In this document: one piece after another, positions 13,478 through 22,609 of the stretch
Position numbering within the stretch: the stretch's first letter is position 1
Layout of the letters: every line of letters begins with the position of its first letter
Sequence record: OP114734.1
Length of the DNA: 64,000 nt
From: Escherichia phage vB_ESM-pEJ01
Strand: one strand, 5' to 3'
Notes under the pieces: generated by a model
Database searches by the model: none
What the model was told of the DNA's origin: nothing
The model's input: the letters and a program-made list of their open reading frames with translations, nothing else
Made by a program: the position numbers and the translations under genes

Positions 13478-13485
13478 TATAAATA
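13478..13485 (+). promoter_or_regulatory. T4-type late promoter TATAAATA upstream of gene 9
   Basis: exact TATAAATA 28 nt upstream of the gene 9 ATG. Confidence 0.55.
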
Positions 13486-16823: not shown

Positions 16824-18224
16824 ATGGCAAACAATACTATTAACCATGTAAAAGACGATGCTCAATACGTCAAGTTTAACCCTGTAAACGATTGGCCTCA
16901 AAGCATTACCAACGTACAAGCGGCTTTAGCCGCTATTAATGGCTTTGCCGTAAATGGATTACCGGACGCTACGGAAGATACAGCCGGGATCGCTGCAATC
17001 GCAACTCAGGAAGAAGTAAACGACGGCACTGTAGACAATAAGATCGTGACTCCAAAAACACTAGCTGTTAAAATGTCACGTCCAGATGCTACAAAAGAAG
17101 TAAAAGGAATTACCCGATTTGCCACGATGGAAGAATCGCTGCAAGAGAGCAACGAGAACATGGCAATCGGTCCAGACACACTAAACCATTACTTCACCAC
17201 TAAAAAAGCGTCAGAGAGCGTTCAGGGGACTATTAAGATATGTTCTCTTGAGGCGGCAAAGATTGGCAGCGATGACACAATGGCAGTAACACCTAAAAAG
17301 ATGCACACTGCCATTGCACAGATTGTGCCGGGATTAATTCCAGATCAAAACACAGCAACCGAAAGCGCACAGGGTTTAGTTCAGTTAGCAACTAATGCGC
17401 AGGTTTTACAAGGCCAGATTCGAGAAGGTTTTGCAATTAGCCCTTATGCATTTGCAAATGCTCGCGCCAATGAGAATCAGGCGGGTACTGTTAAGATCGC
17501 CAGCCAGTCACAGATGAATGCTGGTTCAGATGATACTGTAGTTGTTTCTGCTAAGAAGTTTGCAAGCACTAAGGCAACAACGTCTCAATACGGCATTGTT
17601 AAACTACGAGACACCGTAGGAAGTGAGGCTAACGCTGCACTATCAGCAAATGCTAAGGTTCTTCCTAGCACTGGCGGTACGGTAAGCGGAAACGTCTATA
17701 AAGGTTCAAACTCAGACGGCAACCAGTTTGTTACTAAAAATGAATTAGCGAATCACGCAATGCCAATTGGTGGTATTATCCTTTCTGGATTCAATGCCGA
17801 TCGAGGTGACTTTCTGATCTGTAATGGTCGTTCACTGAATAAAAATCAATATCCGCAATTATTTTCTGCGATTGGTTATACCTTTGGTGGTTCAGGTGAC
17901 AATTTTAATATTCCTGATATGCGCGGTTTAGTTGCTCGTGGTTGCGATCATGGAAGAAACCTTGATCCAGGTCGTCGATTTGGTTCTTATCAAGAAGACG
18001 CAATGCAGAGAATTACTGGTAAATTCCCTGTAGCTGACCGCTGGCGCGGTTGGTATGGTGGCGCATTTACTGCACAGCGCGGTCAATGGAGCACGAACTA
18101 TAAAAACGGTGGTGGTGATGATTGGGGTTCTACTGTTAACTTTGATTCAGGAAGATCCGTAAGAACGGCTAACGAGACTCGCGTCAAGAGTCTGGCATTA
18201 AACTATATCATAAGGGTGCGCTAA
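16824..18224 (+). CDS. 12: short tail fibre protein gp12
   Basis: C-terminal tail-collar-type motif (IILSGFNADRG...YPQLFSAIGYTFGG...FN.PDMRG); synteny. Confidence 0.9.
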   Translation: MANNTINHVKDDAQYVKFNPVNDWPQSITNVQAALAAINGFAVNGLPDATEDTAGIAAIATQEEVNDGTVDNKIVTPKTLAVKMSRPDATKEVKGITRFATMEESLQESNENMAIGPDTLNHYFTTKKASESVQGTIKICSLEAAKIGSDDTMAVTPKKMHTAIAQIVPGLIPDQNTATESAQGLVQLATNAQVLQGQIREGFAISPYAFANARANENQAGTVKIASQSQMNAGSDDTVVVSAKKFASTKATTSQYGIVKLRDTVGSEANAALSANAKVLPSTGGTVSGNVYKGSNSDGNQFVTKNELANHAMPIGGIILSGFNADRGDFLICNGRSLNKNQYPQLFSAIGYTFGGSGDNFNIPDMRGLVARGCDHGRNLDPGRRFGSYQEDAMQRITGKFPVADRWRGWYGGAFTAQRGQWSTNYKNGGGDDWGSTVNFDSGRSVRTANETRVKSLALNYIIRVR

Positions 18225-19993
18225 TGATTGAACAATTAAACATCCACGAGATCCCACATGTTGACGGTGTACCAAGCGAAGGACAGCACCGTATTAACTG
18301 GATCAAGAATGGCGAATGTTTAAGCGCAGCAACGACACAGACTGGCAATGACGGGACGCTTAACCGCGCCCCTGTTGCAATTCAAGAAAACGTTGCACGC
18401 GTAAACGAAAACGCAAAATCAACCGTCGCTAAAGTTAACGAGGTTGTAACGGCGGTTAACGATATTAAAACAACTTTAGGGGTAATTTCTGACGGAAGTA
18501 TCATTGATGTGGTTAACCAGACTGTCGCAAAAGTTGAATCCGTCGAAGAGAACTTAGGAGAAACAGCAAGAACTCTGCAAACAACGGTAGACGCTGTATC
18601 AGAACTTAACATCAAGATTGGTGATCGCCCCGCTGCCGATCCGAGCACAAGAACAATCTATGATGACATTTCTTTCATCAAACAAGAAATGGGTTCTTAT
18701 CCTAACTTTAATATCAATGGTTACCCTGATGCTGGTAGTTCCGGTTCTGGCATCAAATACCGAGTTATTCAGAATACCGCAGCATTAAATGACCACGGTC
18801 GCCGAATCATTCAGCTTGAAAACGACTGGCAAGATTCTGACGTAGGCGAGTTAACAAAACAAGTTAACAAAATGCGCAGTGAGATCGGCGACACGTCTCT
18901 TGCAACACAAGAAAATGTGTATGTTCGTCTCCGCACCAACGCAAGAAACATTGCTAACTTATCAAACGAAGTTCTAGAAGTCAAGAAAGCAATTTTGTTT
19001 GATTCAATCCCTGATATCGGGACTAAAGTCACTACGCTGGGAACTAATTATGAACGTCTAAACAATGATGTTAATGGTGTAGATTCCGGTATTCGTCCTC
19101 GTCTTCTGGCTGTCGAGAATAAGATCGGAACGCCTCAATCGGCTGGAAGCATTGACTATCGATTAACCAACACAGAGCGAGAATTTTTAGATCTTAAACA
19201 GGTTGTTGGTGTAAGCGGTGCTGACGGTTTGCGCGGTGAAGTTGTTCGACTTTCCAATGAGATTGGCACTGACAGCGATCGACATACTCTAGCCGGACGT
19301 CTTAAAGTTGTAGAAAACACTCAGGGTCGGTTAGAAGCAAGAGTACAGGACATGGAACAGATTGTAGGTGATCGCGAATCAGGTTTGACCGCTGGCGTTA
19401 TTAAACTATCAAGTGATATCTATGGCGATGATGGTTCAGAAGATCCATTTACTCAGAAAGGCGTGATTAAAATCGTCAAAGAGCTACAAACATCTAACGG
19501 AAACAAAGTAGATGATGTACCTGATGACGGTTTCCATTATCTGCGTAAGCGCGGAGAATGGGTGCAAGTTGCATATGCTACTGGAGCATTTAAAAATACC
19601 GCAGATATTACGGTTGAACTTGACGAACAGGATGTTTATAAACCGATTCCGCTTAACGACATGGCGGAAGAAGTTAATTCTCGTCAAATGGTGAAAAGTG
19701 AATCTGTTGTTACCGTTCAGGACAAAGGTTTATTCCGTTGTGTATTCCGTTGTGATGTACAAGCTCAACATAATGCAACATTCATTGTTGCGATTTTCAA
19801 AAATGGACAGATGGTACATGAAGCGAAAAATGGTCATTACGGAACAGACGAATTGATCAGCTATTCTACCAGTGCTTTCCTAAATATTGAAACGGGAGAT
19901 CAGATTAACATCCGTATTAAGGGTGTATCTGCCGAAGCAGTAGCACAGCCAGTACAAATTAAAGAGTTCCTCTTTGGGATTTCTCCGGTATAA
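18224..19993 (+). CDS. wac: fibritin (whisker antigen control) with C-terminal extension
   Basis: coiled-coil body; foldon-like motif DGFHYLRKRGEWV at about residue 435, followed by about 135 extra residues; synteny after gene 12. Confidence 0.85.
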   Translation: MIEQLNIHEIPHVDGVPSEGQHRINWIKNGECLSAATTQTGNDGTLNRAPVAIQENVARVNENAKSTVAKVNEVVTAVNDIKTTLGVISDGSIIDVVNQTVAKVESVEENLGETARTLQTTVDAVSELNIKIGDRPAADPSTRTIYDDISFIKQEMGSYPNFNINGYPDAGSSGSGIKYRVIQNTAALNDHGRRIIQLENDWQDSDVGELTKQVNKMRSEIGDTSLATQENVYVRLRTNARNIANLSNEVLEVKKAILFDSIPDIGTKVTTLGTNYERLNNDVNGVDSGIRPRLLAVENKIGTPQSAGSIDYRLTNTEREFLDLKQVVGVSGADGLRGEVVRLSNEIGTDSDRHTLAGRLKVVENTQGRLEARVQDMEQIVGDRESGLTAGVIKLSSDIYGDDGSEDPFTQKGVIKIVKELQTSNGNKVDDVPDDGFHYLRKRGEWVQVAYATGAFKNTADITVELDEQDVYKPIPLNDMAEEVNSRQMVKSESVVTVQDKGLFRCVFRCDVQAQHNATFIVAIFKNGQMVHEAKNGHYGTDELISYSTSAFLNIETGDQINIRIKGVSAEAVAQPVQIKEFLFGISPV

Positions 19994-20000
19994 GAAATTA

Positions 20001-20022
20001 AAGGGGCGTTAAGCCCCTTTTT
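20001..20022 (+). terminator. intrinsic terminator after wac
   Basis: hairpin AGGGGC-GTTAA-GCCCCT followed by TTTTT. Confidence 0.65.
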
Positions 20023-20039
20023 CGTTTATAGGTGATATT

Positions 20040-21008: not shown

Positions 21009-21749
21009 ATGTTTAACAACACTCTTTTTGCTCGCCTTGAATCGCAAAAGGATTATGAGAATACACGACAAACAGAGATTCTTAATCCTTATGTGAACTT
21101 TCACAAATATACAAATACTCAGACGTTAGCCGACGTTATGGTCGCCGAGTCTATACAAATGCGCGGCGTCGAGATGTACTACATACCGAGAGAATTTGTT
21201 AAACCTGATATGATATTTGGGGAGGACGTACAAAGCAAATTCACTAAGGCGTGGAAGTTTGCAGCGTACATAAATTCTTTCGATGGGTATGAGGGTGCTG
21301 GCAATTTCTTTCAATCTTTCGGTTATACCGCTAATGATGAATTAACCATAACCATAAATCCAAATTTATTCAAACATCAAGTAGACAACCAAGAGCCTAA
21401 ATCCGGCGATTTGTTTTACATTCCTATGAGCAACGATTTATTCGAAATCTCATACGTCGAGCCATATCAGCCGTTTTTTCAGGCTGGCAAAAATGCCATG
21501 CGTAAAATTATTGCAGAGAAATTCGTGTATAGCGGTGAGGAATTGCGACCAGAATTACAACGCAATGAGGGAATTAATGTTGATGAGTTTGCGGATCTGG
21601 ATCTTGCACCGATCACTAATCTGGACGGGTTAACAGATATCAACTTAGATCAGTACAAAGAAGATAAGCAATTCAGAAGCGAAGGACAAGATTTTATTGA
21701 TCCGTTTGATCCTATTAATGGCAAGGGTTCACCTTTCGCCGATTTTTGA
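21009..21749 (+). CDS. 14: neck protein gp14
   Basis: 246 aa; synteny 13-14-15. Confidence 0.85.
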
Positions 21750-21775
21750 TAAATACTCATAAACAAGGGGGTCAA

Positions 21776-22609
21776 ATGTTCGGTTGGCACTATAATTCGT
21801 CAATTAGACGGTATATTGTATTGCTGGGTAATTTATTCTCCGGCGTACAAATTAAAAGGGTGCGTAGTGACGGTGAGCGGTTTATTAAAGTTCCTATCAC
21901 CTACGCAAAGAAAGAAAAATTCATGATGAGTCTGGACAAATATAACAATATCTCAAGTGAGGAAGACGTAGCAAAGGTAGAAACTATTTTACCGCGTATG
22001 TGTCTTTCTTTGATTGATATGACATACGCCCAGAACTTTAAAACCAATATTGCAAATAAGACAGTACCAAAATATACGGCTGATGGAATCAGGAGCGTAA
22101 CACAATATAATCCTGTACCATATAAGTTTACTTTCGAGTTAGGGATTTATACGCGTAACGAAGATGATATGTTTCAAATAATTGAACAGATTCTTCCTTA
22201 CTTCCAGCCTCATTTTAACTGTAAGATTAAAGAACTACACGGTAATGATGTATGGATTGATCGAGATATTCAGGTCACAATTAGTTCTATTACTCCAGAT
22301 GAACAGGTAGGCGAAGATAAGTTTTCTCGTCGTCGTCTTGAGTGGACCATTATGTTCGAATTTATCGGGTTTATATATCCTCCAGCTACCGACGTTAAGG
22401 GGGAAATTAGAACGATTTATCTTGATTTTCATGCCAATTCTCGTGAATTGAATCCTAGCGGTAATTTTGAATCAGTGGATCACGAGGTCGTTAAACGTGA
22501 CGTCGAGCAAGAAGATTGGGACGGAACTATCAAAGAATCATATTCTAGTGATATTCCAATACCAGTTGCACCGACTCCACCGGGTCCACGTAGTGTAAGA
22601 GAATTTTAA
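21776..22609 (+). CDS. 15: tail sheath stabiliser / tail completion protein gp15
   Basis: start moved to ATG at 21776 (RBS AAGGGGG) giving MFGWHYNSS.RRY...FIKVPITYA, which matches the T4 gp15 N-terminus. Confidence 0.85.
   Translation: MFGWHYNSSIRRYIVLLGNLFSGVQIKRVRSDGERFIKVPITYAKKEKFMMSLDKYNNISSEEDVAKVETILPRMCLSLIDMTYAQNFKTNIANKTVPKYTADGIRSVTQYNPVPYKFTFELGIYTRNEDDMFQIIEQILPYFQPHFNCKIKELHGNDVWIDRDIQVTISSITPDEQVGEDKFSRRRLEWTIMFEFIGFIYPPATDVKGEIRTIYLDFHANSRELNPSGNFESVDHEVVKRDVEQEDWDGTIKESYSSDIPIPVAPTPPGPRSVREF

Follow-up and report, generated by a model that had tools for sequence, protein, structure and literature searches.

The C-terminal portion of the fibritin in phage RB49 is said to have been described by Letarov, as early as 2005, as unlike that of T4. 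In T4 fibritin is present as twelve trimers, of which six make up the collar and six the whiskers, and domain III of gp13 binds the fibritin N-terminus (PMC12929629). At the other end of the T4 molecule the C-terminal moiety touches the long tail fibre close to the knee (PMC3797505). Only the fibritins of T4 and JS98 form trimers with small foldon motifs alone. In more distant fibritins alien sequences replace the T4 C-terminal domain, and RB49 is listed, in summary form, among the phages whose fibritin needs extra sequence in an expanded C-terminal domain to fold or trimerise (PMC3797505). Letarov and Krisch (2013, PMC3797505) take the RB49 protein, AAP04366.2, as type example for an 'RB49' class among the fibritin C-termini, a C-terminal moiety that has also been described as 'unrelated to T4 Wac' (Golomidova, 2022, PMC9569957). 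The subject here is the fibritin gene, wac, in a 64,000-nucleotide stretch of Escherichia phage vB_ESM-pEJ01 (sequence record OP114734.1); this whole stretch is called the window. Its fibritin belongs to the RB49 class, since its C-terminal moiety is homologous to AAP04366.2. In such fibritins a foldon-like hairpin and a C-terminal head, predicted to be a C1q/TNF-type jelly-roll, would together nucleate trimerisation and make up a distal knob on which the long tail fibre docks, a reading to which we give a probability of about 0.7.

The identity of the gene is clear. PHROG 1056 ('fibritin neck whisker') matches its product from end to end (E 2e-186) and T4 fibritin (PDB 2bsg) matches it with E 1e-49, in agreement with a preliminary description, made from the letters alone, that had called the protein a fibritin. 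Identity of the wac DNA is 99.5% with Escherichia phages MIZ6, MIZ2, MIZ3 and kvi and 98.6% with RB49. RB49 gpwac has the same gene position and the same 589 residues and is practically the same protein; the C-terminal 140 residues are 97.1% identical, with only strain-level substitutions. There are 57 matching phage records, all of them Escherichia or Shigella phages of the RB49 group, and every one whose taxonomy was opened is classified as Krischvirus. The open reading frame (ORF) of 589 codons is uninterrupted in all 57, and a gene fusion and an assembly artefact were rejected as explanations. Judged by its sequence, the window comes from a Krischvirus, an RB49-like T4-type coliphage, and the ORF is its wac gene.

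Because RB49-type fibritin has already been published, with the RB49 protein as its type example, the extended C-terminus in the window is a rediscovery and largely ordinary. In other words, the extension relative to T4 that had been noticed at the outset is real, but it belongs to an established class. The discovery value is small, RB49-type fibritin and its non-T4 C-terminus having been in the literature since 2005. What is new is the fold assignment, the conservation of an internal hairpin and the likely wider distribution of the head.

The first two parts of the protein are homologous to those of T4 fibritin (PDB 2bsg, 1aa0, 1avy, 1ox3). The neck-attachment domain of about 50 residues matches the crystal fragments 1ox3 and 2ibl (E ~2e-15), and residues 1-50 contain many columns that are invariant in an alignment of 14 fibritins. 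A continuous HMMER alignment then pairs residues 6-426 with residues 5-431 of T4 fibritin (E 1e-49), and the last shaft segment, residues 408-426, is modelled as a helix by AlphaFold2 (AF2). A long segmented coiled-coil shaft is thus indicated through homology only.

The foldon-like motif comes next, and its position is where the two proteins part. T4 fibritin (487 residues) stops 7 residues past the motif, and the T4-type fibritins in IMG/VR (485-487 residues) end in ...GEWVLLSTFLSPA and are therefore without an extension. In the window the motif, DGFHYLRKRGEWVQV, is internal, at residues 435-449 of 589, and 140 further residues follow as a separate head. Both the internal position, near residue 435, and the absence of the extension from T4 had been proposed in the preliminary description. 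The foldon is therefore not the extreme C-terminus, as it is in fibritins of the T4/JS98 type. A motif is likewise internal, as a recurring module, in JS98-type fibritins, which have two foldon motifs, and in multi-foldon fibritins. However, in JS98 the first motif is followed by a coiled-coil spacer and the second foldon, whereas in the window it is followed by a globular jelly-roll head.

Is the motif a genuine relative of the foldon? Pfam Fibritin_C covers residues 368-451, a match that runs to the profile's last position (E 1.5e-30). In BLASTP against the C-terminus of T4, VDDVPDDGFHYLRKRGEWV is paired with IPEAPRDGQAYVRKDGEWV (10 of 19 positions identical, E 4e-6), and HMMER against PDB sequences places the motif opposite T4 residues 456-480. 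Given these three matches, the motif does not resemble the foldon by mere chance. The foldon core P-x-DG-x-x-Y-[VL]-RK-x-GEWV is kept between T4 and the window. The first proposal depended on the motif modelling as a beta-hairpin propeller; in the AF2 monomer model a beta hairpin is predicted, with strands at 438-442 and 445-449. The predicted local distance difference test score (pLDDT) of the hairpin is 58-72, as expected for an element of a trimer that is modelled as a monomer.

The flanks of the motif are another matter. In the T4 foldon they consist of an N-terminal extended segment and a C-terminal 3-10 turn with hydrophobic residues. Direct comparison of the sequences shows that the T4 flanks GYIPEA and LLSTFL are not kept, the window having NKVDDV and QVAYAT in their place, and the flanking hydrophobics Y2, I3, F26 and L27 of the 27-mer are not conserved. 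Nevertheless, set against the published description of the RB49-type C-terminus as unrelated to that of T4, the sequence keeps a foldon-like hairpin before the new domain. Some very long fibritin homologues (P0021 and P0022, 1006-1007 residues, and L012, 1009 residues) have four or five foldon-like motifs, such as APSDTKYYARRDGMWEKI, KADGQIYGRKDNKWVVF and APKDSMKYVRQNGAWTTA, between segments that are not coiled coil. In these proteins the hairpin seems to act as a module that can be used repeatedly along a fibre.

The folded domain behind the hairpin is about 137 residues long, close to the 135 or so first estimated. An AF2 monomer model of residues 395-589, built from an alignment of 19 fibritins, has a mean pLDDT of 84.9; blocks over residues 455-589 score 89-95, with one block at 80. 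Residues 453-588 are modelled as an all-beta sandwich, and the beta character originally suggested for this region is borne out, nearly all of it being strand at a pLDDT of about 90 or higher. The model has the ten-strand beta jelly-roll of C1q/TNF-like heads. A Foldseek search of predicted viral structures gives 509 matches at E <= 1e-3, many of which are phage fibre proteins annotated as collagen-repeat or C1q. Pfam BclA_C (PF18573) agrees over residues 457-575, although below threshold (E 0.0028; 17.9 bits, where 38 are required), and one fibritin homologue, P0018, has a precomputed PF18573 match. No Pfam family is above threshold for the head, which is to say that it is not recognised by sequence as a member of a curated C1q/TNF-like family. 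Because the model, the Foldseek matches and the sub-threshold BclA_C match agree, the extension is assigned, as modelled, to the C1q/TNF-type jelly-roll heads. Literature searches for a link between fibritin and C1q or TNF-like domains gave nothing relevant.

The likeness to described heads of this type is one of fold. The BclA C-terminal domain (1wck, 3twi), the C1q, Caprin-2 and collagen VIII NC1 heads and the TNF ligands are only 9-18% identical to the window head. The stalk beneath the window head is an alpha-helical coiled coil and not collagen. Heads of this type are the classic C-terminal trimeric knobs of fibrous proteins; in the window a trimer of heads is only expected, the head being carried by a fibre that is itself trimeric. 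Phage heads with the same fold are found in the tail fibres of cyanophages A4 and A-1(L) (9k09, 8ke9), in PRD1 P5 (1yq5), in the receptor-binding domain of TM4 gp23 (9n6a) and in the receptor-binding protein of phage 1358 (4l92). All of these belong to host-binding tail or vertex fibres, whereas the window head is on neck whiskers and shows no sign of diversifying selection (see below). In addition, a stand-alone protein of 159 residues from the T4-like Klebsiella phage KPV15 (BFVD A0A1J0MHA5) matches the hairpin-plus-head model (Foldseek E 6e-11, template modelling score 0.77 on the target, 24% identity). This protein may be a free-standing version of the hairpin-plus-head module.

The fold also bears on whether the extension stays on the virion. 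What if it were an intramolecular chaperone that cleaves itself off and is missing from the mature whisker? A precedent exists in the same virion, as gp37 of RB49-like phages carries such a C-terminal domain (PMC9569957). However, the wac product has no match in Pfam to Peptidase_S74 or another chaperone domain, the predicted head fold is C1q/TNF-like and not the S74 fold, and the stable jelly-roll that is predicted is typical of permanent fibre tips. A removable chaperone is therefore highly improbable.

The pattern of substitutions is the next clue. The ratio of non-synonymous to synonymous substitution rates (dN/dS; Nei-Gojobori over 13 genes) is 0.05 in the N-terminal domain, 0.09 in the shaft, 0.18 in the last coiled-coil segments and 0.17 in the head, and is lowest, at 0.03, in the hairpin; the values are rough because dS, at 0.6-1.2, is saturated in part. 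Selection on the head is purifying. Compared with the window protein, other members of the genus are 91-95% identical in the hairpin, which is the most conserved segment of wac, 77-84% in the head and 75-91% in the shaft. Substitutions in the head fall evenly on strands and loops, with 65% of strand and 69% of non-strand positions variable. Neither dN/dS nor position variability gives any sign of hypervariable loops or of another fast-evolving receptor-binding signature in the head.

By sequence, the distribution of the head is very narrow. When it was searched against 50,697 phage records with tblastn, only the 57 Krischvirus wac genes were found, and an exhaustive HMMER scan of 1.84 billion representatives returned only fibritins and two spurious repeat proteins. 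The latter, P0024 and P0025, were rejected as homologues; they are internally repetitive and were matched in five short stretches. A word-index search with the 140-residue head alone gave two 110-residue fragments only, whereas the full-length query recovered full-length fibritins. At the level of sequence similarity, the head is restricted to fibritins.

These observations matter because the extension was initially put forward as an extra binding module. Perhaps the head is an accessory adhesin or lectin, with the twelve trimers reversibly binding glycans or proteins of the host surface and so gathering virions at the cell before the long tail fibres engage. Letarov and Krisch have speculated that non-T4 fibritin C-termini act in this way (PMC3797505), and the C1q/TNF-like fold is common in receptor-binding heads. 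A 2026 preprint also reports k-mers predictive of lipopolysaccharide sugars in gp12 and in the adjacent fibritin gene, although linkage to gp12 could explain the fibritin signal. However, a head with a dN/dS of 0.17 and no hypervariable loops that has diverged to the same level as the shaft speaks against an adhesin. Nor is there rapid diversification or modular exchange tracking host range; the head is inherited vertically with the genus and has no recognisable copy in any non-fibritin protein. Moreover, host-range differences and host-range mutants of RB49-like phages map to gp38 (PMC9569957), and an adhesin would in any case leave the folding role standing. A host-binding role is possible, then, but unlikely and without support in this analysis. 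A more specific proposal is that a lectin-like knob binds an E. coli surface glycan and helps the phage to reach or penetrate O-antigen-coated cells, besides nucleating trimerisation. This is also unlikely.

As it was worded, the extra binding module is not supported. The fold is used for receptor-binding heads and also for trimerisation knobs, which makes binding only one possibility. The published need of the domain for trimerisation (PMC3797505), the purifying selection and the mapping of host range to gp38 (PMC9569957) all speak against it.

The favoured reading is that hairpin and head take over the job done in T4 by the 27-residue foldon alone. C1q-type heads nucleate the folding of the stalk in collagens. 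In RB49-type fibritin three heads would associate into a compact knob. The knob, with the hairpin as a collar beneath it, would set the register of the chains and nucleate zipping of the trimeric shaft from the C-terminus towards the N-terminus. In the virion the whiskers and collar fibres would each end in such a knob at their distal tip. This tip, as in T4, would capture the knee region of the long tail fibres, both during fibre attachment and when the fibres are held retracted. The knob is the likely docking surface because of the analogy with the contact made by the T4 fibritin C-terminus; its trimeric packing and its docking of the fibre are both presumed.

Could the head be a folding device only? 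It might simply be a bulkier replacement for a foldon that is no longer autonomous, with no partner to bind in the virion and with fibre retention achieved by the shaft or absent in RB49-like phages. The requirement for an expanded domain in trimerisation (PMC3797505) is what this explanation would predict, and it also fits the established role of C1q-type heads in nucleating collagen stalks. What counts against it is a dN/dS of 0.17 over the whole surface and not over a buried core only, although surface and core residues were computed together. A domain of 137 residues is also costly next to a foldon of 27, which suggests an added function, and the equivalent tip in T4 does contact the fibre (PMC3797505). 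A role confined to folding is therefore decidedly unlikely.

If the knob docks the long tail fibre, its partner might be expected in gp36, the knee protein. RB49 gp36 (gene 36, L033:15157-16647) has 496 residues, only the first 171 of which match T4 gp36. Full-length matches to it are essentially confined to Krischvirus, and the only Pfam match is to the N-terminal gp36 family, below threshold. The gp36 extension is compatible with a lineage-specific partner of the fibritin head, but it is not proof of one. Residues 129-265 of RB49 gp36 match the L-shaped tail fibre of phage T5 (33% identity) and also 'L-shaped tail fiber' proteins of Citrobacter and Enterobacter phages.

Several points weigh against a knob that both nucleates the trimer and docks the fibre. 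Covariation of gp36 and head across genera is weak, phages with similar fibritin heads having unrelated gp36 C-termini, and the correlation amounts to two lineage-specific extensions that coincide in one genus, not to covariation over many lineages. That the head would dock the long tail fibre is argued from T4, and the C1q/TNF-like fold is also used by genuine receptor-binding proteins. For RB49 the folding claim goes back to a 2013 summary (PMC3797505). The hairpin is predicted in a monomer model only, at low pLDDT, and the saturation of dS makes the dN/dS values a coarse guide.

The locus itself is that of a T4-type fibritin. In the late structural cluster the gene has gene 12 on one side and gene 13 on the other, as in T4, and the surrounding order, 9-10-11-12 upstream and 13-14-15-16-17 downstream, is the same as in RB49. 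Coordinates are given in Table 1. The ATG start codon of wac overlaps the stop codon of gene 12 (TAATG, 18222-18226). A terminator is annotated in related phages at the same site as the strong terminator-like hairpin listed in the table, between wac and gene 13. Inside wac no T4-type late promoter (TATAAATA), from which the head might be expressed on its own, is present; the nearest one upstream is at 13478.

Table 1. Features of the wac locus in the window (all on the + strand; residue numbers refer to the gene product)
Feature	Coordinates	Strand	Basis
wac (fibritin, neck whisker/collar fibre), coding sequence, 589 residues + stop	18224..19993	+	ORF listing, translation
N-terminal neck-attachment domain, residues 1-50	18224..18373	+	alignment to T4 fibritin N-terminus
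Shaft, with homology to T4 fibritin's segmented coiled coil, residues 51-430	18374..19513	+	HMMER
Foldon-like beta-hairpin motif, residues 435-449	19526..19570	+	Fibritin_C, BLASTP, AF2
C-terminal head, predicted C1q/TNF-like beta jelly-roll, residues 453-589 (137 residues)	19580..19990	+	
Gene 12 (short tail fibre), upstream neighbour, 466 residues	16824..18224	+	ORF; RB49 annotation of syntenic gene
Gene 13 (neck protein), downstream neighbour, 310 residues	20040..20972	+	ORF; RB49 annotation
Terminator-like hairpin (20000-20020) and T-run directly after wac	20000..20030	+	consensus scan: 8-bp stem, 5 GC pairs

Further downstream the window has gene 14 directly after gene 13, at 21009. In some Krischvirus genomes gene 14 is absent from this site, where phage MIZ5 has a homing endonuclease gene (L028:2956-3420) and phage Brandy a hypothetical ORF (L029:3138-3420). 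The mechanical ORF of gene 15 (21746-22609, 287 residues) has a TTG start and overlaps gene 14, whereas RB49 gp15 is annotated as shorter, with a start about 27 nucleotides downstream.

How far does the arrangement extend beyond Krischvirus? The same layout is seen in fibritins of 578-591 residues from Aeromonas phage 44RR2.8t, Klebsiella phage Marfa and its relatives, Proteus phage Pm5461 and metagenomic contigs. In each of these types the foldon-like motif is decayed (GRWYFENGAW or DGKAYICRYKTW, for example), and behind it lies a beta-rich domain, some 135 residues long, that is collinear with the Krischvirus head. Two further fibritins of about 586 residues, on IMG/VR contigs L010 and L023, share about 50% identity in the head with 44RR2.8t. 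When IMG/VR was scanned with single proteins for additional fibritins of the 44RR and Pm5461 types, almost nothing but the queries came back. Thus T4-like phages of Aeromonas, Klebsiella and Proteus probably show the layout of foldon remnant plus head as well.

Whether these heads share an ancestor is less clear. Starting from the window head, an iterative search with a hidden Markov model (HMM) brings in the Pm5461 type. The other types align collinearly, but weakly (E 0.4-3, for a database size nominally set to 1e6), and profile-profile comparisons give P-values of 5e-5 to 5e-3. On these figures the odds are about even that the RB49, 44RR, Marfa-like and Pm5461-like types, which have been seen as alien replacements independent of one another, are diverged versions of one ancestral foldon-plus-C1q-like head.

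For foldon-tag engineering, the fibritin in the window is a natural example in which the hairpin would serve as a collar beneath a larger trimeric head. The predicted fold and the details of the hairpin also give a testable model of how the whisker folds and of the surface that it shows to the long tail fibre or the host. Finally, if the heads do share ancestry, the history of 'modular replacement' proposed for fibritin C-termini would in part be the divergence of one head.

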